Shown here: positions 2,064 to 17,404 of the stretch, in pieces
Position numbering within the stretch: position 1 is the stretch's first letter
Layout of the letters: each line of letters starts with the position of its first letter
Virus record (IMG/VR): IMGVR_UViG_2606217100_000005
Direction: 5' to 3' (one strand)
From: a virus
Lineage: Duplodnaviria; Heunggongvirae; Uroviricota; Caudoviricetes
Length of the DNA: 21,957 nucleotides
Program-made: the position numbers and the translations under genes
The notes under the pieces: model-generated
The model's database searches: none
What the model saw: the letters and a program-made list of their open reading frames with translations, nothing else
What the model was told of the DNA's origin: nothing

Positions 2064-2718
2064 CTATAATAAAAACAATCAATTAATTATTTTTAAAGTA
2101 TTAAACAAGAACCTATTGACATTCATAAAATACAAGTTATTTATAATGTATGCCATAAATAAAAAGTTTTATGTCATATGTATCCTGCACTATGTGCAGT
2201 TAATGTACCACTTGTCCCATAGATGGGAATATTGGAAAGGTTACTTTGTTTTGAAGTAGCCTTTCGTCCTTCAATATTAACGATTACTTATTGCTATTAC
2301 CAAGTCCAGTCGAATCGAAGAACATCTTTTATCTGAAACGACTCCTAATACCCGGTTAAAGCCACAATATCTCTCGCATACGTAGACCAAAGAAAAATTA
2401 TGATATTAAATATGTGATTTTTTTTAGTGTTAAGTTGAATAATTAAATACTGGAGAGTTTTCTGTGCACTACCAATTGCTGGTTCATCTGTTCTGCCGCT
2501 GATGTTTCTGACGAATCTCCCGGTGACACAGAACTGTCCCTCTCTACCAGCCTTTATTCGACTCAATGTCCGGCTGCTGATACGCAGTTATCCCTTCGTA
2601 TCAATGACTTACACTTAAACGTAATGCTTTGGTTGCTGGCGTATCTGACAGCTTCTTCGGCGTGAAGGTCGTTGTGTAAGTATACTTCTTGGTTTATTTA
2701 GGCTATATAAAACCATGA

Positions 2719-3615
2719 CTATGACTTGCTGTTTTCAGTAAGAGTCTTATCATCCAAAGAATTTATTCTAGAAATTCTTTTTAACTCATTAAGATAATCA
2801 ACCTCGTTTTCTAAGAACCAATGAAGAACTTTAGAATTGCCAAGTAATTTATTAATATATGACTGGATTATAACGAATTTCAACATATCTGAACCATACT
2901 CGGTTTGAAGCTTTTTCGTTTCTTCCGAAGTTGTTGCCATTTCTTGTTCCAGACGAAGTATGGTTTTTTTTATGTCCTTTTTATAGGGAGTGTTTTTCCC
3001 TTTATTTACTATCATCGATGCCGGTGTTGCATCCAAGATGCTCATTGCAAATTTTTTACTATAATTATCAAAATTAATCATTGTACCGACTGCTTCAATT
3101 TGGCGAATTGGCTTCATTTTCCTCAAAACGTCAAATGTAGCCTTAGGTATAGGTTTATCAGAAAGTTTCGCAATTACACTTGAATCTATGCCGTTCATCA
3201 CATTCGCTTTATCTTTTATGGCATCAACAGATATGCCCAAAGCAGCACTAAGTTTTTCAATTGATACTTTTGCCAGAGACTTAATTATCATTCTATGTTC
3301 TTCAACTACATTTATATGATTCACTTGTTTGTTAGGAGTGAAAGCATCATCTATGCTCGAAAGTATACATGGAGCTTTTTCTATACCTAAGTCTTTTAAA
3401 GCCTCAACCCTTAAATGGCCATCAAGTATCTTAGTGACATCTTTATCTTTGTCATAGAATACTATTATTGGTTCAATAATACCTAAGCTTTCGATAGAGG
3501 TAACTATTTGATGATATTTATGGCTTCGCTTTACGTTTTCTAATAATTCCTTAGATGGAATTAACTTATTAGTTTCCAGGTAAATAAAATTATCGCCAAA
3601 ACGTATCTGAATCAT
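2719..3615 (-). CDS. ParB-like N-terminal domain protein (paralog B), 298 aa
   Basis: ORF with ATGA stop/start overlap to the upstream gene. Motif ...IIEPIIVFYD...KILDGHLRVEALKDLG... resembles the ParB/Spo0J N-domain arginine-finger box (GERRxRA / DGQHR-like). AT-rich codon usage. Confidence 0.7.
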   Translation of the reverse strand: MIQIRFGDNFIYLETNKLIPSKELLENVKRSHKYHQIVTSIESLGIIEPIIVFYDKDKDVTKILDGHLRVEALKDLGIEKAPCILSSIDDAFTPNKQVNHINVVEEHRMIIKSLAKVSIEKLSAALGISVDAIKDKANVMNGIDSSVIAKLSDKPIPKATFDVLRKMKPIRQIEAVGTMINFDNYSKKFAMSILDATPASMIVNKGKNTPYKKDIKKTILRLEQEMATTSEETKKLQTEYGSDMLKFVIIQSYINKLLGNSKVLHWFLENEVDYLNELKRISRINSLDDKTLTENSKS

Positions 3616-4508
3616 TTTAATACCTCTTTGTTTACTGGGGTTAATATCTGAGATGGTAGTTCTGAAAGATTCTCTTGTTCAAGTATATGTTGAAAGCTTT
3701 TATTCATCATTATGATGTTAAAAATCTCATTTACTATTAGTAGGTTGGTTTTTATGAATTTTGAGTTGTTATAAACAGATTTATGTTCAGCGATACTATT
3801 TTCATAAAGCTCAATCAACTCCTCTGCAGTCATCCTTTTTGATGGTTTGTGATAATAAAATCCGGCTGCTTTTGCACCTTTATTCCCAACTGTTCTTTGA
3901 TTTAGAATGTGTTTTATCTTTATAATGTCCCGACTTTTTATTAATTTTTTATCATATGCTTCGGTAAGAATATCTTGTGCTTCCTCAGTTTCACATCTTG
4001 CAAATTGCACTGCGAGATACAGAGGCAAATTACCCCGTTCGACTGCTGAGAGAAGTTTATGCTCTCCCTTATCAAGTAGCATATTAATACTGCTCACCCA
4101 GTTCGATGAATATCCAGTAATCTCACTTATTTCGGAGTCTGAAAGTCCTCTGATTTTCATGTCTTTAATCACCTGTAATAACTCATTAGAACGTGGTCTT
4201 CTCCTTGCAATGTTTTCAACTAAACTCATAACGTAAGCATCTTCTTCTGATACATCTCTTATAATTGCTGGAATAATAGTTTCACCTAATGCAACGAGAG
4301 CCTCTATTCTCCCTTGACCACAAATTAAAGCATATTTGAAATCGCCTTCATCAATAGCTCTTACGCTTATAGGCTTGCTTAATCCTCTTTTTTTTATGCT
4401 TTCCTTTATTTCTTCATGCACTACCTTATTTCTTGTTCGTGGGTTAAGAAATTTTATTTTTGCAATCTCAATTTGAATTATTGGGAATTCATTTTTTTCA
4501 GGCAGCAT
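3612..4508 (-). CDS. ParB/Spo0J-like protein with central HTH (paralog A), 298 aa
   Basis: N-terminus IIQIEIAKIKFLNPRTRNK...SKPISVRAIDEGDFKYALICGQGRIEALVALGETIIPAIIRDVSEED follows the ParB N-domain pattern; followed by an HTH-like segment GLSDSEISEITGYSSNWV. Overlaps the recombinase gene by 11 nt. Confidence 0.7.
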   Translation of the reverse strand: MLPEKNEFPIIQIEIAKIKFLNPRTRNKVVHEEIKESIKKRGLSKPISVRAIDEGDFKYALICGQGRIEALVALGETIIPAIIRDVSEEDAYVMSLVENIARRRPRSNELLQVIKDMKIRGLSDSEISEITGYSSNWVSSINMLLDKGEHKLLSAVERGNLPLYLAVQFARCETEEAQDILTEAYDKKLIKSRDIIKIKHILNQRTVGNKGAKAAGFYYHKPSKRMTAEELIELYENSIAEHKSVYNNSKFIKTNLLIVNEIFNIIMMNKSFQHILEQENLSELPSQILTPVNKEVLK

Positions 4509-6054
4509 ATAGTTCCCTCACTTTCATGCGAGTAATAATTTGTAGAAGTTTATCAAGATTATCAAATCTATAGAGATCTAATCGAATGTTGTTTGTTTCC
4601 GTCATGCACATTTTATTATATTCGTTTTCAATCTTTGGTATGATATAAAAATCAAGAGGTGAAATATTTTGTGAATTCATTCGTATAACAATTGTTATGT
4701 CTGCTTTCTGTGAGTTATCAAACCGGACTTTCCATCTAAGTTTACCTGATTTCATATGTATGCATTTAGTAACAAGGACGGAAATTAAAAACTCATCATT
4801 GATGTAAAGCATTGGGGCATATTTATACTCGTCTATATGACAGTTACTTTTTAAAATTTCACCCTTAAAATCCTCAATTATCTCTGAGTAAAATGATCTT
4901 AGTGCTTCATTTATTTTGAGATAGCTGTAATCATGTTCTGGCTTATAACCAATCAAAGTATATGCTCTTAAAAGACCACCAAATCGGGTTCTATAAACAG
5001 AAGATGAAGGGCCTGTATCATCTTCATCAATGATAAAGCCTGATAGTTTTCCATTAGATTCTAATTTTTGTTTTAGTTTTTCTAATAGATCTTCATTAGT
5101 CAAATGAATGGATCGGAGCTGAATTATTTCTTGAGCTTTATTGTATTTTTTCTTTGAAATAATAGGTTTATATGCCTTGTCACATCTAACCCATTCATGT
5201 TTGGGGTTTTTTACAAGCCTACTTTTTAATTTAGATGAGGTTTTGTTATATATGTTGTTTCCAATATATTTTTCATTTGTCAAAATTTGATGTATTTTTG
5301 CACGAGTCCATAATGTTCCATTTTCTGCAGGTATGTTCTGTTCATTTAATCTCTCAGCAATAATGAATTCTGGGACGTTATTATCTATAAAGAGATCATA
5401 TATTCTATTTACAATTTTTATTTCATTTTTTGGTCCCGGAATTAATATTACCCTATCTGTTTGAATACTCTTTCTTTTGCGGAAACTCAATATTTCTTTA
5501 GCTATGCCATTTTCGTCTACTAAAAGACGTCTCAGCCCATAACCAGCCATACCGCCTTGATGATAACCAAGCTTTATTAAATTTACTTGCCCTATAAATA
5601 CCTTTTCAGATAGATTCCTGCTGTGATATGCAGCACTAGATCTTTTTATATTCAGTATAACAGAGGACTCTAAAGGGAAATCTTTAGTGGGTATAGGTTC
5701 GGAACAATATATAAGATCTACACCATTTCTCTCAAATAGAAAGGAATAATATGCCGCTTCATCACTATTTTGAAAACGACCAAAACGGCTCACATCATAA
5801 AATAATACAGCCTGTATATCTATTTTCTTTTGTTCTACATCGCTAAGTAACTGCTGCAAAGAATGCCTGCCTACGATACTGACTCCGCTCTTACCTGCAT
5901 CATCGTAGGTATAAGCGATTTCCATATTGTTCTTTTCAGCATAATCTTTGATATATTCGGACTGATTATGTAAAGAATATTGCTGATGGTCGGTAGACAT
6001 CCTCAAGTACTGCGCGACCCTAACTCTATGATTTTTTTCATTTTCGCTAGCCAT
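4498..6054 (-). CDS. Large serine recombinase (resolvase/integrase family), 518 aa
   Basis: N-terminal VAQYLRMSTDHQ motif (catalytic serine context of resolvase-family enzymes) followed by a long C-terminal extension typical of large serine recombinases; ATG start with GAGG upstream. Confidence 0.85.
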   Translation of the reverse strand: MASENEKNHRVRVAQYLRMSTDHQQYSLHNQSEYIKDYAEKNNMEIAYTYDDAGKSGVSIVGRHSLQQLLSDVEQKKIDIQAVLFYDVSRFGRFQNSDEAAYYSFLFERNGVDLIYCSEPIPTKDFPLESSVILNIKRSSAAYHSRNLSEKVFIGQVNLIKLGYHQGGMAGYGLRRLLVDENGIAKEILSFRKRKSIQTDRVILIPGPKNEIKIVNRIYDLFIDNNVPEFIIAERLNEQNIPAENGTLWTRAKIHQILTNEKYIGNNIYNKTSSKLKSRLVKNPKHEWVRCDKAYKPIISKKKYNKAQEIIQLRSIHLTNEDLLEKLKQKLESNGKLSGFIIDEDDTGPSSSVYRTRFGGLLRAYTLIGYKPEHDYSYLKINEALRSFYSEIIEDFKGEILKSNCHIDEYKYAPMLYINDEFLISVLVTKCIHMKSGKLRWKVRFDNSQKADITIVIRMNSQNISPLDFYIIPKIENEYNKMCMTETNNIRLDLYRFDNLDKLLQIITRMKVRELYAA

Positions 6055-6336
6055 GCACGAAACCTCATGGATGATTCAATACAATGTAGTGGATAAAATT
6101 GATCAAATTTTAACCGAATTCAACTGTTTTATCATTGATTAGAGCGAATTTGGTAGATCTTCGAGGTGTATGATAATCGAGAAGAGATGTGAATTATTTA
6201 GCTGATATGACCGACAGCTTTCGTTATGTGGACTCAATGTCCCCATTTGTAAATGGCTATGCTTAGTCCACATAGGTTAATGGTGTGATTATTAATTCTT
6301 TAACTAAATCAAGATAGTTAATCCATCATGGGAGAG

Positions 6337-7566
6337 TTATGCGGCAATAACTTTGCATTTTTGAGACGAAACATAGTCACTCCACCATTGCATGAGAACC
6401 ACCCGTTCAGTGAGATACTCTGCACGATTGTAGGCTGCAATTATTTCATCTTTCTTCGAGTGGGCAAGGGCGGCTTCTAAGACATCAGTCCTAAACTTGC
6501 CAGACTCCTCAGCAGCCGTTCTAGCAATGGATCGCATACCGTGAGCTACAAGCTCACCTCCGAAACCCATACGGATTATGGCCGCATTAGCTGTTTGTTC
6601 ATGCATGTGATTGAGTGGAGCTTTGATACTGGGGAACACCCACTCTCTATGCCCGCTGATGACTTTCATTAAATCCAAAACTCGCAAAGCTTCTTTGCTC
6701 AGTGGAACTTTGTGAGGCTTCTTCATTTTCATAAACTCCGCCGGGATGTTCCACATGCCAGTTTCAATATCAATATCTGACCATCTTGTGCGAACAGCTT
6801 CACCTGGGCGAACCCATGTGAGAAGTTGCCACTCAATCAGTAGCCTTGTTTCCAAACGGATAGAAGCATTGTTTAGAGCAACCAAGAAGCGAGGGAGTTC
6901 GGAAGGGGGTAATGCTGGCATATTCTGTTTTTTTGGCTTGCTGAACCGTTGCCCCAGGTTGTCTGCCGGGTTGAATTCTATGAGTTCTTCTGTTGCTGCA
7001 TAGCGGAAAATTTCATTCAGGCGGGATATGATGCGGCGAAGTGTTTCAAGGACACCTCGTTTTTCTATGGGTTCTAAATGCTGTTTAAGCATTTTAGGGC
7101 GAATCTCCTTAATTGGGGTATCACCCAATGTGGAAAAGATATTTCTCTCTAGGCTTCGCCAGATGTCGTTAGCATGATCTTGGGAGATGCCTGACGTTTT
7201 GACTTTCTCATCAAGCCACTTCTTGGCTACTGCTTGAAATGTATGTTCCGTGGCATCTTTCAGTGCATTGGCTTTTTGGTTGTTATGAACTTGGGGGTCT
7301 ATACCATTTGTAAGCAACGACAAGTATTCATCACGTAAAGCTCGTGCCTTCGCAAGTGTAAGGTGAGGATAGGTTCCTAAGCTCACCTTAGTTCGCTTTT
7401 TGGTCACAGGCACTGCATATCTGAAATACCAATTTTTCTTCCCTCCCTTCGCCAGGGGAGCGATTCGCAACAGCAAACCATCGCCGTCAAAAAGGTTAAC
7501 CTCTTTTTCGGCAGGTTTGGTGCTTTTGATTTCAGTGTCAGTGAGCTTCTTAGCGATTTTGGCCAT
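6337..7566 (-). CDS. Tyrosine integrase, P4/CP4-57 (IntA-like) family, 409 aa; ORF extends to 7647 but the ATG at 7566 is preferred
   Basis: N-terminus MAKIAKKLTDTEIKSTKP...LFDGDGLLLRIAP is the P4-type arm-binding domain; C-terminal HGMRSIARTAA...AYNRAEYL holds the catalytic tyrosine region. Lies next to the ssrA 3'-end repeat in the same orientation as int follows ssrA in E. coli K-12. Confidence 0.85.
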   Translation of the reverse strand: MAKIAKKLTDTEIKSTKPAEKEVNLFDGDGLLLRIAPLAKGGKKNWYFRYAVPVTKKRTKVSLGTYPHLTLAKARALRDEYLSLLTNGIDPQVHNNQKANALKDATEHTFQAVAKKWLDEKVKTSGISQDHANDIWRSLERNIFSTLGDTPIKEIRPKMLKQHLEPIEKRGVLETLRRIISRLNEIFRYAATEELIEFNPADNLGQRFSKPKKQNMPALPPSELPRFLVALNNASIRLETRLLIEWQLLTWVRPGEAVRTRWSDIDIETGMWNIPAEFMKMKKPHKVPLSKEALRVLDLMKVISGHREWVFPSIKAPLNHMHEQTANAAIIRMGFGGELVAHGMRSIARTAAEESGKFRTDVLEAALAHSKKDEIIAAYNRAEYLTERVVLMQWWSDYVSSQKCKVIAA

Positions 7567-7697: not shown

Positions 7698-7731
7698 TAG
7701 TAGACTTTACTGAACTTCAGTACATCAATAT

Positions 7732-7763
7732 TTGGTGGAGCTGGCGGGAGTTGAACCCGTGTC
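7732..7763 (-). repeat. 32-bp direct repeat of the ssrA 3' end (att core), 31/32 identical to 21556-21587
   Basis: TGGTGGAGCTGGCGGGAGTTGAACCCGtGTCC here versus TGGTGGAGCTGGCGGGAGTTGAACCCGcGTCC at the true ssrA 3' end; sequence diverges after this point. Confidence 0.9.
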
Positions 7764-7973
7764 CATAGTTATGTAATTCATTGAATTTAAATAGCCAAAT
7801 ATTGTTGATTTTACAAGCGGCTCTTTTGCGGAACTTTTTCTGTCCTGTTACTGTCTTACTATTTATTTTAAAATAGTTTCATTTGGAATTAATGGTTTGT
7901 GGTTGCAGTTTCGGAGATAGATAGCATTTTTTGCTAAAAAATATTTTTATAAAAAATGTGTGTAAAAATGATG

Positions 7974-7996
7974 TTATGCACAGATTTATGCACAGA
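7974..7996 (+). promoter_or_regulatory. Two tandem DnaA-box-like 9-mers TTATGCACA (consensus TTATNCACA), with a third inverted near-match at 8020-8028
   Basis: TTATGCACAGA t TTATGCACAGA read directly; reverse strand of 8020-8028 reads TTATCCAAA. About 200 bp upstream of the 8191 ORF. Function not established. Confidence 0.3.
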
Positions 7997-8190
7997 GGCT
8001 TTGTGATAAACCAGATTGTTTTGGATAAGTTTGTTTTTTTGTGATTTGTCAACAATATTATTGACTCTTGTTACTAAAGTGAGTGTTTTCTAAGGTGGTC
8101 AGAAGTTGTCCCTTCATGTAATCTTATTAGCCATAAAGAACAAAAAATAATTCAACATCATTACCAACTATTTGTAAGATAAGGTTTTTA

Positions 8191-9006
8191 ATGTTGCAAC
8201 CAGCAAAAAAAGCATCAGTTATTAGCGCGCGGCTAACTAAATACCTCAAAGATGGAGTGAGGATTGATGACTTTAGCTTTAGAAGGATGTTACGTGAGAT
8301 TGAAGCACTTAGAGATCCTGTCTCTGAGGACTATCTTTTAGCGTTGGTCTATGGTGCACATGGCCAAGTGAATGAGGCGATAGGCTTCTTTGAGCGTTCC
8401 TTGCAGGTATGCCATAATGAGGTTGTTGCAAAGAATTTTCTTGTTTTCTTGTCAGATTACGGTACGTTGAAGAAAAGCTTTGAAACAAGCATTAAGCTTG
8501 CTGAAAGCTTCATATCCCCGTTTATTTATCTTCAAGCTTATGAAAACTCCCTCTTTATGGGGAAGATGGCGTTGGCGGAGAAGTATTTCCAGTCATACTC
8601 TAAATTGTTCGGAGATAAGGAGCCTGAAAAAATGGACAACAATCTTGATGAAGTTGTTTCCCAGGTCGAATCCTTTAAGCAACGTGCCGATCTTTCTGGT
8701 TTAGAATATGAACTTATTTTCAATAATGTAGCCAATGTCATGGATTCTCAGAAGGTTCATCTTTCGGGAATGCGTTTTTATAATATTTCGGAAGAGAAAG
8801 TGAATGCGATTGTATTCATGACAAAGTCTTCTGATGCTGAACAAATCGCTGATATGAATATTGAGCTTGCTTTTTCAATGGCTGAGCACGATTGTTTAGT
8901 CGGTAAAGATTTTGCTGTTTGGTTTGAATGTAAAGACACACATATTGAGCAGAATGCTATCTCCGAATTAGGTCTGATTACCCGGAGGGTTGCACATGCC
9001 GGTTAA
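8191..9006 (+). CDS. Hypothetical protein, 271 aa (no family recognised)
   Basis: Long ORF with ATG start and AAGG upstream; predicted helical, AT-rich; its last 11 nt overlap the next ORF. Confidence 0.6.
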   Translation: MLQPAKKASVISARLTKYLKDGVRIDDFSFRRMLREIEALRDPVSEDYLLALVYGAHGQVNEAIGFFERSLQVCHNEVVAKNFLVFLSDYGTLKKSFETSIKLAESFISPFIYLQAYENSLFMGKMALAEKYFQSYSKLFGDKEPEKMDNNLDEVVSQVESFKQRADLSGLEYELIFNNVANVMDSQKVHLSGMRFYNISEEKVNAIVFMTKSSDAEQIADMNIELAFSMAEHDCLVGKDFAVWFECKDTHIEQNAISELGLITRRVAHAG

Positions 9007-9379
9007 TAGTCAAGATTTTCTCGGTTTTGCAAAAGACTGTCATCAACGTAATGACGAAATCGGCTATCGAAATGCTATAGCAAGATCCTACTATGGCGCT
9101 TACCATCATGTCTTGCCTTGTATGGTAAACGGGCCGAAAGACAGTCATCAGGGGCTAATCAATTATTTGCAGGGCGATGCTTCAAGAGGAAGTGAAGTAT
9201 ATGAAGCTAGATATCTAAAAGGGATTAGTTTTATCCTGAGTCAACTTAAAGCTCAGAGGATTGTTGCAGACTATCGACTTGATCAATCGGTCACTTCTAA
9301 ACAGTCTGAAGTTGCGATTCTAACAACTGAGAGGCTCTTTGCTAAGTGTACGGAAATGCTTAAATCGAGAGCCTCCTAA
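8996..9379 (+). CDS. Hypothetical protein, 127 aa from ATG 8996 (ORF opens at TTG 8990); contains an Rx6H motif (RSYYGAYH)
   Basis: GGAGGG lies 6 nt upstream of ATG 8996. The Rx4-6H pattern is the HEPN signature, but that assignment is speculative. Ends at an intrinsic terminator. Confidence 0.55.
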   Translation: MPVNSQDFLGFAKDCHQRNDEIGYRNAIARSYYGAYHHVLPCMVNGPKDSHQGLINYLQGDASRGSEVYEARYLKGISFILSQLKAQRIVADYRLDQSVTSKQSEVAILTTERLFAKCTEMLKSRAS

Positions 9380-9385
9380 TTGATA

Positions 9386-9411
9386 AAGCCACTTAAGTGG
9401 CTTTTTTTGTG
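9386..9411. terminator. Bidirectional intrinsic terminator (AAGCCACTTAAGTGGCTT + T-run)
   Basis: 18-bp palindrome followed by TTTTTGTG on the plus strand; the stop codon of the minus-strand int gene lies inside the stem. Confidence 0.7.
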
Positions 9412-10565
9412 ATATTGCTGGTCGTATTACCGTCATATTCCTTTAAATATGAACCATAATGACGAAATAACATTTCCGGCCCTTTATGCCCCATTTGAGC
9501 TGCAAGCCAAAACAGGTTTGCTCCCCGGCTGATATGGCGGGTGGCGAATGTATGCCTAGTTTGATATGGATTTCTGTAACGAATACCTGCTTTTCGCAAT
9601 GTTGGCACCCATGCTTTTTTCCTGATTGCATCAGCACTTGCCCAAGGCTTATTGGTCTTTGGATCTTCAAAGACAGTAGTATCCTTCATGAATGTAAATG
9701 GCTTCTGATTTATCAGCGCCAACATTGCCTCTTCTGTCAGTTCAACTTTCCGAGTACCTGCTTTTGTCTTTGTCCCTTTGATAACACCGACAACACTTGC
9801 GCTCTGGACATGGGCAGTTTTTCCAACAAAGTCGATATCACGCCATCGAAGGGCACATAATTCAGAACTACGCAGGCCTGTATGTATAGCGAACCGGAAC
9901 AGATTTTCCCATTGTTTGTTTCCGGCTGCTGCTAGTAATGCATCAACTTCTGCTGGTGATAGCGGATCAACTACGTAGCTGCTTTCTGCTTCTGACTTAT
10001 CACTTTGGTAGCGCGAAGCTGTTACTAACGATACGGGGTTAATTTGAAGTACCCCATCGGTCACGGCTTCATCAAGTGCTGACCGCAGGAAAGATAACTG
10101 GTTGCGAATTGTTTTTAAGGTCGTTTTCTGATTTTGAATCCACGCTTTCAGGGTTGCTGGTGTTAATTCACTTGCAGGGCAAATGTGAAGTGAGGCTAAC
10201 GCACTACGGCATTTTTTATAGCCACCAATCGTAGAGGGTGAAAGTTTTCTTGTTTCGCAGATTTCAAGATATTCGTCCAGGTACATCTTTACCGTTTTGC
10301 CTGCAGCAGCATTACCAAAAATTTTCAAACGAGCAGAACGGGGAAAATATTCTGCATAAATGAATGTTCCCCTTTCGATCTTATTATGGATTTCGCCGAG
10401 TGTACGCTCGGCGTATTTAATGTTCTTTGGTGTTACTTCCAGATTGGAAAGCGGCTCACGACATCTAACTCCTTTGTAGGTGAAAGTTATATTGATCGTT
10501 TCTCCCTGGCGGTGTTTCCTGATTGTTACGCCGCGCGGTAGTTTGAGCAGTTTTGTCTGGCCCAT
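9393..10565 (-). CDS. Tyrosine integrase, lambdoid type, 390 aa
   Basis: N-terminus MGQTKLLKLPRGVTIRKHRQGETINITFTYKGVRCRE (arm-binding domain of lambdoid integrases); C-terminal RHTFATRHISRGANLFWLAAQMGHKGPEMLFRHYGSY has the catalytic R/H/Y region. Confidence 0.85.
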   Translation of the reverse strand: MGQTKLLKLPRGVTIRKHRQGETINITFTYKGVRCREPLSNLEVTPKNIKYAERTLGEIHNKIERGTFIYAEYFPRSARLKIFGNAAAGKTVKMYLDEYLEICETRKLSPSTIGGYKKCRSALASLHICPASELTPATLKAWIQNQKTTLKTIRNQLSFLRSALDEAVTDGVLQINPVSLVTASRYQSDKSEAESSYVVDPLSPAEVDALLAAAGNKQWENLFRFAIHTGLRSSELCALRWRDIDFVGKTAHVQSASVVGVIKGTKTKAGTRKVELTEEAMLALINQKPFTFMKDTTVFEDPKTNKPWASADAIRKKAWVPTLRKAGIRYRNPYQTRHTFATRHISRGANLFWLAAQMGHKGPEMLFRHYGSYLKEYDGNTTSNITKKAT

Positions 10566-10771
10566 TTTGCAACCTCACTAAGATCAATCCACCTCTCCTT
10601 AACGCCTTCAACCTTTAAAACCTGAACACCTTCACGCCAAACACCGCGCTGTACACGTTTGTTTATTGCTTCAGGAGTTTCGCCAGTTTCTTTGCAATAA
10701 GTTGAGATAGGAACACAATCGAGGTTCAGCATACGTTTCTCCATTATCCCGTCTGCACACGGGAGCAACAT
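10526..10771 (-). CDS. Excisionase-like small DNA-binding protein; probable start at ATG 10732 (68 aa); overlaps int start by 40 nt
   Basis: Position and overlap with int are as in lambdoid xis-int pairs. GGAGAAA precedes the third in-frame ATG. Family assignment is by context and size, not a recognised motif. Confidence 0.5.
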   Translation of the reverse strand: MLLPCADGIMEKRMLNLDCVPISTYCKETGETPEAINKRVQRGVWREGVQVLKVEGVKERWIDLSEVAKWARQNCSNYRAA

Positions 10772-10773
10772 TA

Positions 10774-11640
10774 TTAACGAATAGTGTCGTTACTTTGAAG
10801 TACAGCAAATGCCATTAATACTTCTAAAGTATATCTTCTATAAAATTTAACAAAACCAACATAGAAAACATAGACGAAGAAAAAGCTAAGCATTATTGAA
10901 AGTAAACTATAAAGATAATCACTATGAGTACATAATCGATAAATAAAGGTTGGAACTGATACCCAAAATGAAATTATAAAGATTAAACATATGTTTCTGC
11001 AAAAACCATATAATGCAACATAGTTTTGAATTTTTGTTTGATGTTGTTTTGAAAACTCATAAACATAATGATATGCCAATCTGAAGAGATCATCATCAAG
11101 TCCGTTTTTATCTTGTAATAATTGGCGATTTGTTATGAACTTTTTCTCATAACCTTCTTTGATCATTAACCATGTTGTATTAGCTAAATGAAATGGTAGA
11201 GATTGAGAATAACATAGTTTTTGTGTTATAAAATCCCATAGTATTATTGGGCATAATACGCATTTGATTATGCGATTCTTTATTTTTGTTTTTTTATCAG
11301 CGCTTCTCTCATCGCATGATGGGCTACAAATGCTTTCTGAGGTATCTATCAATTTTTTAAATAGATATTTGGAAGGATATCCTAATTCTTTATTCATGTA
11401 TTTTTCGATAAAAAATGCTGACGTGATAGAAATAAAATGTCCAGCTATATAAGATATAATAACTATTGAAGCGTAGTTCAAAATGCCAAAGATTTGACTT
11501 TGACCTCTGAGCAATTCACTTAAGTCAATAACAATATCTAGATCGAATGTCAAACCACAGAAATACATTAATAGGATAAAAAAACCACCTGGTATTAAAT
11601 ATCCAAGAAAGTCATAGAATGAGAATGGATTTTGATTCAT
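10774..11640 (-). CDS. Polytopic membrane protein, 288 aa from ATG 11640 (ORF opens at TTG 11664)
   Basis: At least four hydrophobic helix-length segments (FLGYLIPGGFFILLMYFCGLTF, ILNYASIVIISYIAGHFISITSAFFI, ICLIFIISFWVSVPTFI, LLSIMLSFFFVYVFYVGFV). GGAGAG 5 nt upstream of the ATG. Strongly AT-rich compared with flanking prophage genes. Confidence 0.6.
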   Translation of the reverse strand: MNQNPFSFYDFLGYLIPGGFFILLMYFCGLTFDLDIVIDLSELLRGQSQIFGILNYASIVIISYIAGHFISITSAFFIEKYMNKELGYPSKYLFKKLIDTSESICSPSCDERSADKKTKIKNRIIKCVLCPIILWDFITQKLCYSQSLPFHLANTTWLMIKEGYEKKFITNRQLLQDKNGLDDDLFRLAYHYVYEFSKQHQTKIQNYVALYGFCRNICLIFIISFWVSVPTFIYRLCTHSDYLYSLLSIMLSFFFVYVFYVGFVKFYRRYTLEVLMAFAVLQSNDTIR

Positions 11641-11748
11641 TGTTGCTCTCCAATAATTTTTCAATTTGTAATATAACCTATATCTATATGTTAATAAATT
11701 ACTTATATGTTCTTTTATGGCAGAGTTTGAATTCGTACGTGCTGATTT

Positions 11749-12285
11749 TTACGACTCAGTTAACTCTTTAAAGCGTTCCATAAACATCCCATAGGTATGG
11801 CCTGGCGACAGTGGAATAACTTTGAACATCTCTGTTGCCGGGATACCTTCCAGTACGGGCCAGAAAGAGCCATCATCAAGCCCGAGATCGCGGCGTTCGG
11901 TTGCCAGCATGATGAGATCGGCATATTTCACGGGCGTACTCATAACCGGGGGTAACCCGTATTTCTCACGGATTACGGCGTCTATTTTTTCTTCCATCCG
12001 TTTATAGTCAGGAAGAAGGCGTTTCAGTGGAGCCGGGATGTCCTGGCAATACGCTTCTGTTGCATCATGCATTAACGCTTCAAAAGCAAATTCCTGCGGT
12101 ACCAGCTGGCTGCAAAGCACCGCATGTTGGGCGACGCTGTAGAAGTGTGAAAGATGGCCGGCAAAGCGACAGATATTTGAAAGGGAAACCGCGATATCGT
12201 TAATATCGATGTTGTCTTTATTTATCCTGTCATAATAAAAATGTTTCCCGGAAAAAGTTTTAATAAATGACATTTTGTTCTCCAC
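11749..12285 (-). CDS. yfdR: HD-domain phosphohydrolase, YfdR-like 5'-deoxynucleotidase; ATG at 12273, ORF opens at GTG 12285
   Basis: HD-domain residues (H...HAVL...MHDATEAY...D). Size and neighbourhood match the CPS-53 prophage yfdP-yfdQ-yfdR block as recalled. Confidence 0.65.
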   Translation of the reverse strand: MENKMSFIKTFSGKHFYYDRINKDNIDINDIAVSLSNICRFAGHLSHFYSVAQHAVLCSQLVPQEFAFEALMHDATEAYCQDIPAPLKRLLPDYKRMEEKIDAVIREKYGLPPVMSTPVKYADLIMLATERRDLGLDDGSFWPVLEGIPATEMFKVIPLSPGHTYGMFMERFKELTES

Positions 12286-12401
12286 GTTATATGCGCTGCA
12301 CCGCGCTGAATTTTGGTTAAAGAAAACCCTCGCCTTCAGGCGATTATTGAGTCAATTACGTTTCCATAAATGCCCCCGCAGGGGCATTTGCAGTAATGAA
12401 A

Positions 12402-13226
12402 TCAGGCGGTGAAAGTCCCAATAAAGGTTTCTACTTTGCTGTCCTTGAATTTCTCAACAAGCAGATCACGAAATTCGTTAGCCATATCTTCCTGCACCGC
12501 TTCCAGCTGAATAATGCGCAGAACCAGTACAGGACGATCGCCAGTGATAATGCTGAGGCGTAATTTAAACGGACGTTCTTTCAGACCTTCAAACGGAACG
12601 CATTTAAACTCAAATGCCACTGGCATAATGTCTTTGGTCTTCGCTTCGACAGACTCCATCAGGGAGCGTTTGCCGCTGAAGTCATTATCTTCAAAATCAG
12701 CAGTCTGGTTTGCTTCAATCGTGATTTTACGGACCGCCGCAGCCGCTTTTGTTGCCTGAATGGTGTCACCATTAGCATCAAAGCCCACAAGGTAGTCGGC
12801 CCAGTCTTCGATCCATTCTGCCAGTGACTTCTGGGAGTTACGCTCGCCGTTAACAGACAACAGAGCAGAGAACGGTGCTGTCTTTTTCAGTTTGAGAGTG
12901 GCAGTGTTATCTGCGTGACCTGGCTCATCAATAGTACCCAGGTTAAGCACACTGACGGCACGCATATTATCGGCATCGATAAAGCAGCGGGTGCCTTCAT
13001 CTGCAAGATCTTTAGAATAACGGGTAAAATCATCGATGCTGGCAGTGGAAAGTGCACCACGGAAACGGAAGCGATTTAAATTAAATTTTTCCAGATCATG
13101 AATGCGGAAATTCTCAGGCAATGCCACAGCATCGGCACCAATCTTACTGATAATTTCATTAACACCCTGAGCAGAAATAAGGGCATGGATTTGATTAATT
13201 GCGGTTGCGTCTAAGTTCTGAGACAT
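12402..13226 (-). CDS. yfdQ: Prophage early protein, YfdQ-like, 274 aa
   Basis: 274-aa ORF with GAGGA RBS, sitting between the YfdP-like and YfdR-like genes. Assignment is by size and synteny recall, not motif. Confidence 0.5.
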
Positions 13227-13291
13227 AATAAGTCCTCACTATATAAAGATATTCAGTGATGAGATAAATAATCAGTTTATTACGAACGATA

Positions 13292-13654
13292 TTAACGACC
13301 TGCTGCGCGGAGTTTTCCGTCAGGTTCACCGGCAAGAGTCAGTAATTGTCCCTGGTCTTCCTGCAGAATAGTCAGGCGACCACCGCGATTGACATACATC
13401 GGCGTTTCGGTGGTGTCTTCTTCGGAAATTTTCCCGCGGTTAGTTGGGCGAACATATGAGAGTTTGTGTTTGATTTTCACACGGTTCTCATCAAACGGTT
13501 CGATTTCCAGATTGAGTGAGACCTTCCCTTTGGTTTTCGTGTTCATCACACCGGAAGCGACCTCACTGAGAACTGCGCCGATTTTGGTTTCAAATACGCC
13601 GCCGTCCAGCTCCCCGATAAATGCCTGCACATCAGTACTGCGTTCGCTAGCCAT
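13292..13654 (-). CDS. yfdP: Prophage early protein, YfdP-like, 120 aa (start at ATG 13654, not the 175-aa extended ORF)
   Basis: GAGGAG 8 nt upstream of the ATG at 13654. The upstream in-frame extension is low-complexity and crosses an inverted repeat. Confidence 0.5.
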   Translation of the reverse strand: MASERSTDVQAFIGELDGGVFETKIGAVLSEVASGVMNTKTKGKVSLNLEIEPFDENRVKIKHKLSYVRPTNRGKISEEDTTETPMYVNRGGRLTILQEDQGQLLTLAGEPDGKLRAAGR

Positions 13655-13703
13655 TTTGCTGCTCCTCATCATATCGACCCTGCAAGGTCGGTTGGTTTCT
13701 CCA

Positions 13704-13790
13704 CAAAACAGAGAAGAACACCTGCGGTGGCAGCCGCCCGGATGGATTGGGTTATGAGCCCGTCGTCCGGTGATGCTCTTCTCTGTTTTG
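13704..13790. repeat. 14-bp inverted repeat CAAAACAGAGAAGA / TCTTCTCTGTTTTG enclosing a 59-nt GC-rich segment
   Basis: Read directly at 13704-13717 and 13777-13790. Lies in an apparently non-coding GC-rich tract with no protein-like ORF in any frame. Confidence 0.8.
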
Positions 13791-13800
13791 CAAAAAAGGA

Positions 13801-13837
13801 CGGTACCAGCCGGAAGCAAGGGTACAAACTGGTACCG
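13801..13837. repeat. 9-bp inverted repeat CGGTACCAG / CTGGTACCG with 19-nt spacer
   Basis: Read directly at 13801-13809 and 13829-13837. Contains GGTACA, the motif repeated in the immunity-region operators. Confidence 0.8.
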
Positions 13838-14092
13838 CCAGGACTACACACAGCATAAAGTTGTGGTGCCGGGTGCCTCCCGGTGCCTGGCGAAGGTTGC
13901 ACACTAGGCGGGTGGGTATCCACAGAAGGTCGACTGTCAGCCTCAACCTTAACCCGCGTACGCTGAGCCGCATTCACCACAACGCTAAGGATTCTCTCTG
14001 GTTGAAAATACTTAGCTGTTATGTGCCTGTCTTTTCACCACTTCAGGCTCGGTGGTATCCTTTTAAGCCCGTATACATAAAAGGAAAATCAA

Positions 14093-14338
14093 ATGACTTT
14101 TGATGAAAAAGGACTTGATAATGCAATTAATAAAATCATCGTAACGTCGCTCTTTTCCTGTCTCAGCGACACTCAGCAGAAACAGTTCTACGAATCGGCT
14201 TTCAACATGATCGAGCGTTGTTGTTTCTGCGATGCCGACGAGTTACCTGAAAAAATCAGGAAACAGTTGGCTGATGCTCTTCGAGTGCGACTTTCTGACC
14301 AATTTTCTGAAATGTGCTCTCCGAATTTGGACAAATAG
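14093..14338 (+). CDS. Hypothetical small protein, 81 aa
   Basis: ATG with AAGGA 8 nt upstream; charged, helical-looking sequence. It is antisense to the PL-like operon and overlaps the 14256-14531 ORF by 83 nt, so one of the two may be spurious. Confidence 0.4.
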   Translation: MTFDEKGLDNAINKIIVTSLFSCLSDTQQKQFYESAFNMIERCCFCDADELPEKIRKQLADALRVRLSDQFSEMCSPNLDK

Positions 14339-14531
14339 AAAAAGGCCATTTCCATTCAGGGTCTGATGGAAATACTTCAGCCTGTTCCAAAGCACGGCGT
14401 AAAGAGAACACAACTCCAGCCATAATCTGATGTTTCCCATTGGTCCAGCTATCGCCGCTCTGATCTACAGGGGCGGCTATGTCGTATGACCAAACGACTT
14501 TACAGTTATTGTTTAAAATCTGGACTTTCAT
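14256..14531 (-). CDS. Hypothetical protein, 91 aa; first ORF downstream of the PL-like promoter
   Basis: ATG 14531 preceded by AGGTG; position matches the N slot of lambdoid phages, but the sequence is not arginine-rich and was not recognised. Confidence 0.45.
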   Translation of the reverse strand: MKVQILNNNCKVVWSYDIAAPVDQSGDSWTNGKHQIMAGVVFSLRRALEQAEVFPSDPEWKWPFSICPNSESTFQKIGQKVALEEHQPTVS

Positions 14532-14657
14532 TTCATACACCTGCTTTAACATGAGTGCCTAGTGGCACAACATGACTCAACGAATCATCCTGGACTTCAT
14601 ATGCCCCAAGCGGCTACTTCGTGGGCGTCCTGCCTGTTCGTTGTTTCTCTTGGGTAC

Positions 14658-14685
14658 ATTATGTATCTCAAAGGTACATTGTCAA
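14658..14685 (-). promoter_or_regulatory. Sigma70-type promoter (PL-like): -35 TTGACA, 16-nt spacer, -10 CATAAT, flanked by GGTACATT operator-like repeats at 14653 and 14673
   Basis: Minus-strand reading of 14680-14685 is TTGACA and of 14658-14663 is CATAAT. Sits immediately downstream of the cI terminator, as lambda PL/OL does. Confidence 0.55.
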
Positions 14686-14687
14686 GT

Positions 14688-14712
14688 ATAAAAAAACCTG
14701 CCGAAGCAGGTT
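14688..14712 (-). terminator. Intrinsic terminator after the cI-like gene (stem AACCUGC, UUCG loop, U7 tail)
   Basis: Plus strand AAAAAAACCTGCCGAAGCAGGTT; on the minus strand this is a 7-bp stem with UUCG tetraloop and a run of seven U, starting about 10 nt after the cI stop. Confidence 0.75.
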
Positions 14713-14724
14713 CATAAACATTGA

Positions 14725-15399
14725 TTAGGCTTTGATTTTGTATCTTCTTGGTTTTCCTGAGAAAATCACTGTACCAATTATAGAGCAATTACCGTTGATC
14801 TTAATGTAAGGCTCAGGCCAGTTTGGGTTTAACGCTTTGAGATAACGCTGTGTCCCATCTTCTATTAACCTTTTGAAGGTGGTTTCACCTGTATCGTGCA
14901 TCAATGCAATAACGTCGTCACCGTGGCAGGCAGGTACTTCAGGATCGACAAAAATCATGTCTCCCGGGCGGTACTCATCAATCATTGAATCACCTATCAC
15001 CCGCAAGATATAAGTCATTTCCCCACAGGGTACAGGGCAGGGATACGTTTCTGCTGTGCTCAAATCAACCTCAGAATATCCAACTTCTTTCCATGCTCCG
15101 GCCTGTACCCATGATATGACAGGGACTAATGTGATTTGTTTATTAGTGATTGAAACATCAGGTTTTTTTGTGATGTTCGTTGTCTGGTGTTCTTGATCGA
15201 GCCATCCGACAGGTAGGTCGAAACATTTTTCGATGTGTCGTGCCATGCTGTCACCGATATTTTTAGTAGCACCATCTCCCATAAACCTGCTGGTCTGGGT
15301 TGGCTCGCGATCAATCATAGTGGCAAAGGAAGAATTCCCGCCAACACCATCTCTCAGTTTTCTGGCGTTAGACCGCCGGATGTCATGGATTGTTTTCAT
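14725..15399 (-). CDS. CI-like prophage repressor, N-terminal HTH plus C-terminal S24 (LexA-type) peptidase domain, 224 aa
   Basis: C-terminal VIGDSMIDEYRPGDMIFVDPE...FKRL has the Ser/Lys dyad context of S24 autoproteases; divergent from a Cro-like gene. Confidence 0.85.
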   Translation of the reverse strand: MKTIHDIRRSNARKLRDGVGGNSSFATMIDREPTQTSRFMGDGATKNIGDSMARHIEKCFDLPVGWLDQEHQTTNITKKPDVSITNKQITLVPVISWVQAGAWKEVGYSEVDLSTAETYPCPVPCGEMTYILRVIGDSMIDEYRPGDMIFVDPEVPACHGDDVIALMHDTGETTFKRLIEDGTQRYLKALNPNWPEPYIKINGNCSIIGTVIFSGKPRRYKIKA

Positions 15400-15489
15400 A
15401 ACGAAATTAAAACCCTTGTACCGTTAAGGTACAAGTATCTTGAAGGTTCATTTCAATCATGTAATATGTACACCGGAGGTACATGTTGT
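15400..15489. promoter_or_regulatory. Divergent OR-like control region with a 21-bp palindrome CTTGTACC-GTTAA-GGTACAAG (15415-15435), candidate PR (-35 TTGAAG 15440-15445, -10 TAATAT 15462-15467) and candidate leaderless PRM
   Basis: Palindrome and GGTACA half-sites read directly (also GGTACATG at 15477). cro RBS GGAGG at 15475-15479. Promoter assignments are by consensus matching only. Confidence 0.5.
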
Positions 15490-15690
15490 ATGAAAGCGTA
15501 TTGGGACTCTTTAACCAAAGAACAGCAGGGCGAGTTGGCCGGAAAAGTTGGCTCAACACCTGGCTACTTACGGCTGGTTTTCAATGGTTATAAAAAAGCC
15601 AGTTTTGTGCTGGCTAAAAAACTTGAGCAATGCACGTCAGGTGCAATTACGAAATCTGACTTAAGACCGGATATCTATCCGAAAGATTAA
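15490..15690 (+). CDS. Cro-like / YdaS-family HTH protein, 66 aa (ORF opens earlier at 15235 but the ATG at 15490 has the RBS)
   Basis: MKAYWDSLTKEQQGELAGKVGSTPGYLRLVFNGYK...DLRPDI resembles the Rac YdaS-type Cro-like proteins as recalled; divergent from cI. Confidence 0.7.
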   Translation: MKAYWDSLTKEQQGELAGKVGSTPGYLRLVFNGYKKASFVLAKKLEQCTSGAITKSDLRPDIYPKD

Positions 15691-15721
15691 CAGAACACCT
15701 TCAATTTTTAACCACAGAACG

Positions 15722-16285
15722 ATGAGGCTAACCGTGGGTAAGCATCACTGGAAAGTAGAAAAACAGCCTGAGTGGTACGTGAAAGCTGTCAGAAAAACTA
15801 TCGCGGCGTTGCCGGGGGGTTACGCTGAAGCTGCTGAGTGGCTGGATGTAACAGAGAACGCTTTATTCAACCGCCTTCGTGCAGATGGCGATCAGATTTT
15901 CCCGCTGGGATGGGCAATGATTTTACAGCGCGCGGCTGGCACTCACTACATTGCGGATGCTGTCGCACAGTCTGCTGGTGGGGTGTTTGTATCGCTTCCT
16001 GAAATTGAGGAAGTAGAGAACGCCGATATAAACCAGCGCCTGCTGGAAGTCATCGAACAGATCGGGAATTACTCAAAGCAGATTCGTTCGGCAATCGAAG
16101 ATGGGGTCGTGGAGCCACACGAGCAGACAGCAATTAATGATGAGTTGTATCTGTCAATTTCGAAGCTCCAGGAGCATGCAGCACTGGTCTACAAAATCTT
16201 TTGCGCTCCAGAAAAGAGTGACGCCCGCGAGTGTGCAGCTCCGGGCGTCGTGGCGTTTTGTGTCTGTGGAGAAACTAACGCATGA
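15722..16285 (+). CDS. CII-like phage regulatory protein (CP76-like family), 187 aa
   Basis: Sits in the cII slot after cro. The segment LFNRLRADGDQIFPLGWAMILQRAAGTHYIADAVAQSAGGVFVSLPE resembles the phage CII regulatory family from memory. Stop overlaps the next ATG (ATGA). Confidence 0.5.
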   Translation: MRLTVGKHHWKVEKQPEWYVKAVRKTIAALPGGYAEAAEWLDVTENALFNRLRADGDQIFPLGWAMILQRAAGTHYIADAVAQSAGGVFVSLPEIEEVENADINQRLLEVIEQIGNYSKQIRSAIEDGVVEPHEQTAINDELYLSISKLQEHAALVYKIFCAPEKSDARECAAPGVVAFCVCGETNA

Positions 16286-16430
16286 ACAGTTTAACGGCAA
16301 ATAACCGTTTGTCGCAACAGCTGGTGGTCAGTGTCGCTGCACACCTGTTGTTACGGCATGAATGCAGATTACCAAATCACCTGGCTGTAAGTAACCACAG
16401 AGAACTTTACCTGACTGTGGGGGGCGAGTT

Positions 16431-16610
16431 GTGCAGGAACTTAACCGCTGGTTTCGTGACGGAAGAGGGCTTTATGTCCATGTTATTCGTTGGGAGCCAG
16501 AAACACAGCGCGTTATCTATCTTCGCAAAGACTACCCGCATGAGTGCTTTAGTCCTTTGTGGAAATTCAGGCGTGATTTTGTTGAGTGTGAAGGACCACC
16601 AGCACATTGA
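16431..16610 (+). CDS. Possible small Cys/His-containing protein, 59 aa from GTG
   Basis: Frame-3 translation VQELNRWFRDGRGLYVHVIRWEPETQRVIYLRKDYPHECFSPLWKFRRDFVECEGPPAH looks protein-like, with a GGGGGG run upstream as a possible SD. It is hidden inside a longer, less convincing 236-aa frame-1 ORF. Confidence 0.3.
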   Translation: MQELNRWFRDGRGLYVHVIRWEPETQRVIYLRKDYPHECFSPLWKFRRDFVECEGPPAH

Positions 16611-16915
16611 TTCTGCCATTCCGGGACGTTACACTGTTCAGGCACCTTATAAAGCGGGTGCCGGGATTGGCGTCCTGGAAATGTTATCGGCGATATATGA
16701 CGCGCCAGCGTCTTTTTTATCGTCTGCGTCTGCGCACACCCAAATTATGGTGGGCTGGACGGGGGCACCGAAAGGTGCGCCGGTTTCCGATAACGCCGGT
16801 TACGCCAACCCCGTTCAGTTCACCACCAGCGAAATTGGCGTTTCCGGTGGTGAAGGTAATTCACTGTTATCGGAGGCTGCCATCATGGCTACTGTCCCAG
16901 CCCTCACTCGTCTGA

Positions 16916-17395
16916 ATGATGAAGACTTACATAAACTCAGTTATTGCACCGCCAGATATTCCGGCAGGCTTCGTGGCTGTTTTCAACAGTGATGAGGCAT
17001 CGTGGCATCTCGTTGAAGATCATCGGGGTAAAACGGTTTATGACGTAGCGTCAGGGGACGCGTTATTTATTTCTGAACTCGGTCCGTTACCGGAAAATGT
17101 TACCTGGTTATCGCCGGAAGGGGAGTTTCAGAAGTGGAACGGCACAGCCTGGGTGAAAGATGCAGAAGCAGAAAAACTGTTCCGGATCCGGGAGGCGGAA
17201 GAAACAAAAAACAGCCTGATGCAGGTAGCCAGTGAGCATATTGCGCCACTTCAGGATGCTGTAGATCTGGAAATCGCAACGGAGGAAGAAACCTCATTGC
17301 TGGAAGCCTGGAAAAAGTATCGGGTGTTGCTGAACCGTGTTGATACATCAACTGCACCGGATATTGAGTGGCCAGAAGAACCAGACACCGTGTAA
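16916..17395 (+). CDS. Tail fibre assembly protein (lambda Tfa family), N-terminally shortened, 159 aa
   Basis: From [52 protein letters not shown]... to the end it closely follows lambda Tfa as recalled. The first 9 residues are unrelated and no tail fibre gene precedes it. Confidence 0.8.
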
Positions 17396-17404
17396 GCAAA
17401 AAAG

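Follow-up and report, generated by a model that had tools for sequence, protein, structure and literature searches.

What does a serine recombinase do in an operon with two ParB-like proteins and no ParA? The question is raised by a 21,957-nucleotide (nt) stretch of DNA from the virus record IMGVR_UViG_2606217100_000005 (Caudoviricetes), hereafter the window, in which three minus-strand genes at positions 2719-6054 encode a serine recombinase and two proteins that we call ParB1 and ParB2. An earlier reading of the sequence alone, the original prediction, described this trio as either a self-mobilizing mini-element or a candidate exclusion/defence module carried as cargo of a P4-type integrase island. 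The answer that we favour, tentatively, is a module for site-specific recombination in which the ParB proteins assist the recombinase and by which the trio itself, its neighbouring cargo, or both, are moved.

The three genes overlap, and together they make up a single conserved operon on which purifying selection acts. The open reading frames (ORFs) lie at 4498-6054 (the recombinase, 518 amino acids), 3612-4508 (ParB1, 298 amino acids) and 2719-3615 (ParB2, 298 amino acids), with overlaps of 11 nt between recombinase and ParB1 (4498-4508) and of 4 nt between ParB1 and ParB2 (3612-3615). Indeed, every coordinate, overlap and length given for these three coupled ORFs in the original prediction was reproduced exactly, as were the motifs quoted from their products (AQYLRMSTDHQ, KYALICGQGRIEAL and ILDGHLRVEAL). 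Comparison of the window with a 94% identical Escherichia coli variant gave ratios of nonsynonymous to synonymous substitution (dN/dS) of 0.11 for the recombinase, 0.07 for ParB1 and 0.05 for ParB2, indicating that all three are real genes maintained by purifying selection. The operon is also as AT-rich as first described, with a G+C content of 0.29-0.37 over 2501-6000 as compared to 0.45-0.48 for the integrase gene (6337-7566) and 0.53-0.57 for the IS3 insertion sequence (IS).

When one genome of each species was scanned with degenerate patterns, relatives were confirmed in at least 555 species, from which 80 loci were kept. The order recombinase-ParB1-ParB2, with abutting or overlapping ends and near-constant gene lengths, was found in approximately 78 of these 80 loci, spanning Alpha-, Beta- and Gammaproteobacteria. 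For example, the trio is also present in Rhodovulum, Paraburkholderia, Dickeya, Achromobacter, Burkholderia, Cronobacter and Salmonella. Among 5426 complete E. coli genomes, 663 (12%) carry the 4-kb block. In 507 genomes its identity is 99% or higher, 63 have a 90-95% identical variant, and all 665 copies are chromosomal. The trio is intact in the E. coli B derivatives T7Express, BL21, BLR and Rosetta2. In some other E. coli it is interrupted by IS903B, IS2, IS3 or IS1. Homologues were located on 103 plasmids, mostly rhizobial megaplasmids including pAtC58, and relatives are nearly absent from phage genomes, with a single phage record identified.

Because the partition proteins of repABC plasmids also have the RepB C-terminal domain, and because homologues do occur on plasmids, the trio might be regarded as a decayed ParAB/RepAB partition remnant that happens to lie beside an unrelated resolvase. 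The surroundings of the trio speak against this. The deviant Walker A motif of ParA-type ATPases (KGGxxK[ST]) is absent from the window and from the 10 kb around 86 homologous loci, and annotated neighbourhoods of the trio contain no ParA genes; the sole Walker A motif in the window, near position 10316, belongs to the neighbouring island. The missing ParA partner noted at the outset is confirmed, and homologues were not found beside ParA at any of the 86 loci. Moreover, the E. coli copies reside in ssrA/tRNA islands of the chromosome, and the pAtC58 trio is positioned between AbiE and Fic and not at a rep/par locus. Strict three-gene synteny in three proteobacterial classes, together with the low dN/dS ratios, is incompatible with a remnant. 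We rejected this explanation on these grounds and regard it as extremely improbable.

The recombinase contains both domains expected from the initial reading, as Pfam identifies a Resolvase catalytic domain (PF00239, 7.7e-22) followed by a Recombinase domain (PF07508, 6e-22). A homologue search that started from the E. coli protein gave only sequences at least 96% identical to it; with a Ramlibacter homologue as query a usable alignment was obtained. In a family alignment whose 26 members represent three proteobacterial classes, Y16, R18, S20, D87, R90 and R93, which constitute the serine-recombinase active site, are invariant, so the active site is intact throughout the family. The remainder of the protein is less conventional. 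Canonical large serine recombinases (LSRs) carry a zinc-ribbon/coiled-coil module that serves in recognition of attachment (att) sites and in the control of directionality. No Zn_ribbon_recom match was found by Pfam in the window recombinase, and the 26-member alignment contains no conserved cysteine cluster, its only invariant cysteine being C117. Similarly, no PDB sequence aligns past residue 326, where the PDB profile also stops. In place of the zinc ribbon and coiled coil the protein has a family-specific C-terminal domain of about 190 amino acids that matches nothing in Pfam or the PDB. An AlphaFold2 (AF2) model of moderate confidence places helices and a beta sheet at residues 377-473 and gave no fold assignment for the domain. 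The designation large serine recombinase therefore holds in part, for the catalytic and recombinase domains, but not for the zinc-ribbon/coiled-coil module, which is missing.

Both partner proteins have a ParB fold, as established by Pfam, by profile matches to PDB entries and, for ParB2, by Foldseek. ParB1 is the more conventional ParB/KorB-type protein. It matches ParB_N (1.6e-13) and RepB (8.5e-8) in Pfam, exceeds the cut-off of the generic ParB/RepB/Spo0J model TIGR00180, and can be aligned to Spo0J, Myxococcus xanthus ParB, Noc and KorB. Its N-terminal ParB domain is followed by a central Spo0J/ParB-like DNA-binding region and a RepB-type C-terminal domain. Across 24 family members the elements NPRxR, GLxxPIxV, CGQGRxEA and ENxxR are invariant and correspond to the three boxes of ParB cytidine triphosphatases (CTPases). 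All of the CTP-pocket motifs (Box I, GxxR and ENxxR) are present, and ParB1 is in this sense a predicted CTP binder, by motif only. ParB2 is a divergent version of the same fold. Its RepB match is strong (6.3e-24) and its ParB_N match falls slightly under the Pfam cut-off (1.1e-5); its profile nevertheless matches Noc and ParB in the PDB, and its AF2 model (predicted local distance difference test score 77) is paired by Foldseek, with a probability of 1.00 and over about 200 columns, to CTP-bound ParB, Noc and KorB. A central helical region aligns with the DNA-binding domain of ParB, Noc and KorB, and a long C-terminal helix constitutes the RepB C-domain. The family alignment of ParB2 retains KYxQIxxS, EP, DGHLRxEA and N95, with an invariant DGHLRxEA box, so that its putative pocket, in which EP, DGHLR and N95 are invariant, is divergent as judged from these motifs. 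The two proteins were introduced as paralogues; they do share the fold and a length of 298 amino acids, but the relationship is a distant one, amounting to 30% identity over 63 residues (E=0.001).

If the ParB-like proteins act on DNA, where would they load? The 282 nt upstream of the recombinase gene (6055-6336), which read on the minus strand as the promoter/operator region, travel with the trio: this region is present in trio-bearing E. coli, with approximately 93% mean column identity between variants, and is missing from integrase variants of about 80% identity. Within it, on the minus strand at 6095-6135, lies an operator-like palindrome with a preceding element. The palindrome itself (6095-6114) reads AAAATTTGATCAATTTT in the window and AAATTGATCAATTT in E. 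coli variants, where it is more symmetric; it is preceded by a GGTTGCAACC-like element and overlaps a -10-like TAAAAT, the latter by consensus match only. Nine Enterobacterales loci, with proteins of only 45-60% identity, have the palindrome (14-16 bp) in the form AAA(A/T)TGATCAATTT, about 55 nt ahead of the recombinase start codon and usually preceded by GGTTGCAACC. The promoter palindrome is our best candidate for a parS-like ParB1/ParB2 site. No repeated sub-sites were found in 6055-6336.

A second palindrome in the same region was considered as a recombination site and downgraded. This imperfect 50-bp palindrome at 6225-6274, TATGTGGACT-N8-CCATTT-GT-AAATGG-N8-AGTCCACATA, is unique in the window, with zero occurrences expected by chance, and is present once per genome in 659 E. 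coli. It is absent from the other Enterobacterales loci, however, and in the 94% identical E. coli variants it has decayed without compensatory changes; our argument therefore makes no use of it, and a role as the key site is improbable.

Is the trio a discrete unit? Three sets of comparisons suggest so. In Agrobacterium, a 3.9-kb unit made up of a small, divergently oriented gene, the trio and the next 56 nt is 97% identical between pAtC58 and pAtEML4 within unrelated flanks, and its ends carry a 27-bp imperfect direct repeat. In Erwinia and Citrobacter a 3.55-kb unit of about 96% identity starts 203 nt before the recombinase ATG and ends about 15 nt beyond ParB2, again with unrelated flanks and with an IS110-family gene directly downstream in both. 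Similarly, for alphaproteobacterial loci in unrelated contexts, homology stops about 430-470 nt upstream and 150-220 nt downstream of the trio. The divergent gene, of about 127 codons and with weak similarity to HTH_31, was found at 36 loci and is the only conserved neighbour of the alphaproteobacterial trio; E. coli has no counterpart. Its product starts with MSFPKKGKFFP (for example at L034:5497-5883, and as ATU_RS24150 of pAtC58), it is present in Alpha- and some Betaproteobacteria, and its first approximately 35 nt are invariant, synonymous sites included.

In Alphaproteobacteria the trio is accompanied by an additional, non-coding component. Directly 3′ of ParB2 we found a nearly invariant element of approximately 125 nt (for example L034:9391-9521), in 52 of the 80 loci from genomes and in about 85 of the 120 from metagenomes; counted in any position, the metagenome figure is about 105. 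A five-helix structure fits 97.3% of the cells of its alignment, and 13 of its 26 pairs show double changes; no fit as good came from 500 shuffles, and slid controls reached 31-51%. The many G-U pairs point to the sense strand as the folded strand. The element is a candidate for a new structured RNA or a folded-DNA site, as suggested by these covariations. Rfam gave no gathering-score match to it in seven sources, and a permissive scan only chance-level hits (E 5-8). A profile search with nhmmer found no copy in the window or in the gammaproteobacterial and three betaproteobacterial loci that it covered. About 20 orphan copies exist without the trio, including one located 9 nt past a P4-type integrase gene (L101) and one after an AlpA-like gene. 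In two loci, and in these only, the arrangement resembles cassettes. At a Phenylobacterium locus (L032), two direct copies (10891-11016 and 17660-17777) flank a complete Mokosh system (MkoA, MkoB) beside the trio, and in a metagenome contig (L173) three copies (2032-2143, 6841-6956 and 9296-9412) separate two different trio units in tandem.

The genomic context of the trio differs from that originally proposed. The trio of Enterobacterales, like that of some Betaproteobacteria, comes as the first operon behind a P4-type integrase located at a tRNA or transfer-messenger RNA (tmRNA) gene, for example at ssrA and argW in E. coli, in Dickeya, in Pantoea/Kosakonia, in Salmonella (int-Fic-trio) and in Achromobacter (int-AlpA-Rep-like-trio). 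In E. coli the genomes that match the window integrase region at 99% or more are about as numerous as those carrying the trio. When islands of the SCU-118 and E32 types are compared, integrase and trio are 94% identical and the relaxase module 69-76%, but the cargo is different: type I restriction-modification (RM) and ankyrin genes in one, Hxs and DUF6119 genes in the other. Indeed, homology between the window and the 94% identical variants ends about 51 nt past the ParB2 stop codon, near 2668, and this minus-strand tail (2668-2718) is the last stretch in common before variable cargo begins. Since integrase and trio are co-inherited while the cargo changes, the trio belongs to the island backbone, and the description of it as cargo of the P4-type island does not fit. 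By contrast to this arrangement, most alphaproteobacterial loci, and pAtC58, have an intact trio without a nearby integrase or relaxase.

The neighbourhoods are nonetheless rich in defence genes. They include Mokosh, a methyltransferase with ResIII, AbiE with a restriction endonuclease (pAtC58) and GmrSD, and a random sample of 105 neighbouring ORFs included matches to Lamassu, Azaca, Mza, BREX, Qat and MADS.

How might these pieces work together? We propose that ParB1 and ParB2, probably paired via their RepB-type C-terminal helices, would load at parS-like palindromes, where they could autoregulate the operon. The novel C-terminal domain of the recombinase may be the part through which the pair recruits or licenses the enzyme, and the pair might in this way supply the site recognition and architecture that a recombinase without a zinc ribbon has lost. 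The resulting cut-and-rejoin events would move the module, and probably neighbouring cargo genes too, between genomic islands and megaplasmids. Such movement would explain the place of the trio where the integrase backbone meets variable defence cargo. Near-identical, sharp-ended units in unrelated flanks and the tandem units lend support to the original mini-element idea, but no recombination product was seen.

Several observations weigh against a mobile module. Neither an excised circle, an inversion nor an empty site was observed; a match on an Agrobacterium pusense plasmid that might have represented an empty site is a different Fic/AbiE context, and the downstream flank was not found in any E. 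coli genome that lacks the trio. E. coli yielded no pair of recombination sites, the 50-bp palindrome being single-copy and decaying there, and no significant repeats, direct or inverted, mark the ends of the units from E. coli, from Erwinia/Citrobacter or of the block type in Alphaproteobacteria; a 27-bp repeat is seen in Agrobacterium only. The right ends of the Erwinia/Citrobacter units abut IS110 and the E. coli ends abut IS fragments, so some of the apparently sharp ends may reflect IS activity. In addition, the clonal association of the E. coli trio with a single integrase is equally expected of a backbone gene and of a hitchhiker. Finally, that the ParB proteins interact physically with the recombinase is something that we only infer from their translational coupling and co-conservation.

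An alternative is a role in island housekeeping. The ParB pair would then be CTP-switch regulators of the KorB/VirB/BisD type, silencing or anti-silencing AT-rich island genes, and the recombinase would resolve island multimers or tandem arrays. The position of the trio directly after the P4-type integrase in the enterobacterial and Achromobacter islands named above, its co-inheritance with integrase and relaxase module, the resemblance of both ParB proteins to KorB and Noc, and the operator-like palindrome at its own promoter are all consistent with such a role, for which there are precedents in ParB-like clamps that regulate genes of integrative and conjugative elements (ICEs) and plasmids: BisD (PMC12409273), KorB (PMC11790492) and VirB (PMC10770331). 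However, the trio remains intact at the many alphaproteobacterial loci, and on pAtC58, that have no integrase or relaxase nearby, and the unit occurs alone in unrelated flanks. Resolution would further require neither an LSR-type recombinase domain nor a new domain of 190 amino acids, and no res-like pair of sites was found. We therefore think it unlikely that the ParB pair and recombinase have this division of labour, and likewise unlikely that the trio stabilizes or times the life cycle of the island instead of moving alone. The defence-rich surroundings invite a different explanation, in which ParB clamps would load on incoming plasmid, phage or island DNA and the recombinase would break or scramble it, or would flip an infection-blocking switch. 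Neighbours such as type I RM, AbiE, Mokosh, Lamassu, BREX and GmrSD, together with the AT-richness and horizontal spread of the operon, favour this idea, as do reports that serine recombinases mark defence islands (PMC12632615) and that PinQ/PinR inversions block phage adsorption. Yet the trio stays constant beside the integrase while its defence neighbours vary, as expected of a carrier or marker; it has no meaningful PADLOC match and no effector-type domain besides the recombinase, and its near absence from phages means that no counter-defence signature exists. The case for the exclusion/defence module suggested at the outset comes only from these neighbourhoods, and we doubt that defence is the role of the trio.

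The ~125-nt element allows one further version, a serine-recombinase cassette platform. Here ParB clamps would mark a site, in Alphaproteobacteria this element in the form of RNA or folded DNA, and the recombinase would insert or exchange cassettes such as Mokosh, thereby building the variable defence region of the islands in the manner of an integron, although from altogether different components. We regard this version as rather improbable. A ParB-assisted recombination module that moves itself and/or neighbouring genes remains the reading that we prefer, and if it is correct several consequences follow. ParB clamps that direct the recombinase would be the first example of the ParB-CTPase fold as a specificity or architecture factor in site-specific recombination, and would show that serine recombinases lacking a zinc ribbon can locate DNA by a new route. 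A module that also moves its neighbours would explain the swapping of defence cargo at the integrase-proximal edge of tRNA/tmRNA islands and might yield new programmable integration tools. With a reach of at least 555 species and 12% of complete E. coli, and with an intact copy in B/BL21, the trio can be tested directly in E. coli.

The remaining features of the window concern the island in which the trio resides and a second island beside it. The P4-type tyrosine integrase is encoded on the minus strand at 6337-7566, as annotated by RefSeq for the identical region of strain SCU-118. The att site that bounds the trio's island on its integrase side is a repeat of the ssrA 3′ end (7724-7764), as matches with this gene end in many E. 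coli genomes show. It is followed by a second island (7765-21555) and then by the true tmRNA gene ssrA (21556-21918); accordingly, homology between the window and SCU-118 stops at 7764 and resumes at 21555. The second island contains its own integrase-sized ORF (20113-21327), indicating that two islands lie in tandem in the window. Rfam identifies isrK, C4 antisense RNA and IS009 at 16642-17352. Because C4 antisense RNA is a regulator of the phage P1/P7 type, the second island may be phage-derived. ORFs of 271, 129, 390 and 296 amino acids at 8191-11664, the third with the Walker A motif GNAAAGKT near 10316, could be defence-type cargo.

The DNA just 3′ of ParB2 attracts ISs, namely an IS3-family fragment in the window (2534-2645), IS1 in the B/BL21 lineage and IS110-family elements in Erwinia and Citrobacter (further coordinates L008:11010-12287, L009:11773-12600 and L006:14224-14921). 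Further downstream, the first 114 nt of a type I RM M-subunit gene (MARKPKEIKTDPLEV...) are found at 1194-1307, interrupted by an IS3 copy at 1-1193; SCU-118 has a complete hsdMSR operon downstream of the trio. Fic-family genes adjoin the trio in three independent contexts, pAtC58, pAtEML4 and the Salmonella int-Fic-trio arrangement (L087:9965-11146, L214:2453-3991 and L220-L222:3385-4002). E. coli E32 (L005:9529-14552), Cronobacter (L217-L219:7981-12965) and Erwinia oleae (L021:10870-12495) have a DUF6119/TIGR04141 gene directly behind ParB2, usually accompanied by HxsABCD, the His-Xaa-Ser radical-SAM cluster. With about 81-83% identity between E. coli and Cronobacter, this gene and the trio are inherited together. 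In E32 about 100 nt separate the ParB2 stop from a 244-bp copy of an integrase 3′ end (L005:14711-14954; 82% identity with the integrase of the window), so that the trio is bracketed by two integrase 3′ ends. Tail genes of gene transfer agents (GTA_TIM, Phage-tail_3 and Rcc01698_C) were among the trio neighbours at three sampled loci.

How does the trio relate to systems already described? In PADLOC-DB 2.0 the recombinase has no match, and ParB1 and ParB2 match only the ParB domain of a MTase_II model. No NCBIfam cut-off was reached except by ParB1 for the generic ParB/RepB/Spo0J model, with specific families sub-threshold, and neither our literature searches, protein accessions included, nor the 2025 survey of the ParB-CTPase fold describes the trio. 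The original impression that this is not a known system is thus borne out: the component families, LSRs and the ParB-CTPase fold, are known, and their combination is undescribed in PADLOC, in specific NCBIfam families, in Rfam and in the literature searched. The closest sequence and fold matches of the recombinase are LSRs and integrases (PhiC31, Bxb1, A118, TP901-1, SPbeta SprA, CcrAB and TnpX), with which it shares an N-terminal catalytic domain with the serine nucleophile, a long alpha-E helix and PF07508. Unlike these enzymes, it has an alpha/beta C-terminal domain of about 190 amino acids instead of the zinc ribbon, coiled coil and cysteine cluster, and it is always encoded beside two ParB-like proteins; no attP/attB pair was identified for it.

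Several resolvase systems need accessory proteins of DNA architecture, including Tn3/gamma-delta res, Sin with Hbsu/IHF, Xer with PepA/ArgR, and RK2 parCBA. The trio would resemble these in concept, as a small self-regulating operon in which DNA-bound partners set the site choice or topology of a serine recombinase, but here the accessory proteins are ParB-fold clamps and the recombinase is large and lacks a C-terminal helix-turn-helix (HTH). In particular, Tn3/gamma-delta pairs a small resolvase bearing a C-terminal HTH with a res site of about 120 bp and three sub-sites, whereas the trio protein has 518 amino acids and an LSR domain, and no res-like array of sub-sites was found in E. coli. 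PinQ and PinR are small invertases, and the trio recombinase differs from them in its size and in its constant association with two ParB-like partners. Work in which serine recombinases mark defence islands or act in them (the RADS pipeline and PinQ/PinR) also links such enzymes to variable anti-phage genes (PMC12632615; PMC12529663), and the full text of the preprint compared there has no mention of ParB. DndB/DGQHR proteins differ from ParB2, which has DGHLR instead of DGQHR and is closest in fold to ParB, Noc and KorB; annotated E. coli regions show neither dnd nor ssp genes near the trio.

Integrons consist of the tyrosine recombinase IntI, attI and cassettes that end in a structured attC. 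The alphaproteobacterial clade differs from them in its serine recombinase, in the conservation of the ~125-nt element in both sequence and structure and in having two multi-copy examples, and no element was detected in E. coli. The likeness, which is confined to this clade, lies in a recombinase module followed by a structured element just 3′ of genes in the same orientation; moreover, the element also closes a Mokosh cassette that appears to lack a promoter, and it separates tandem units. From ParABS the trio departs in having neither a ParA nor, in E. coli and on pAtC58, a location beside plasmid replication genes or near an origin, but ParB1 carries the motifs expected of a CTP pocket. The ParB pair is closest to ParB clamps that act outside partition, namely KorB-KorA of RK2, VirB of Shigella, BisD of ICEclc, and Noc. 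As compared to these, the trio has two divergent paralogues with RepB-type C-termini that are translationally coupled to a recombinase, nucleotide binding and sliding are only predicted, and no KorA- or BisC-like partner is present. Like them, the trio combines the ParB N-domain with the adjoining DNA-binding fold, keeps Box I, GxxR and ENxxR in ParB1, lacks a ParA partner and has a palindromic candidate site at a promoter.

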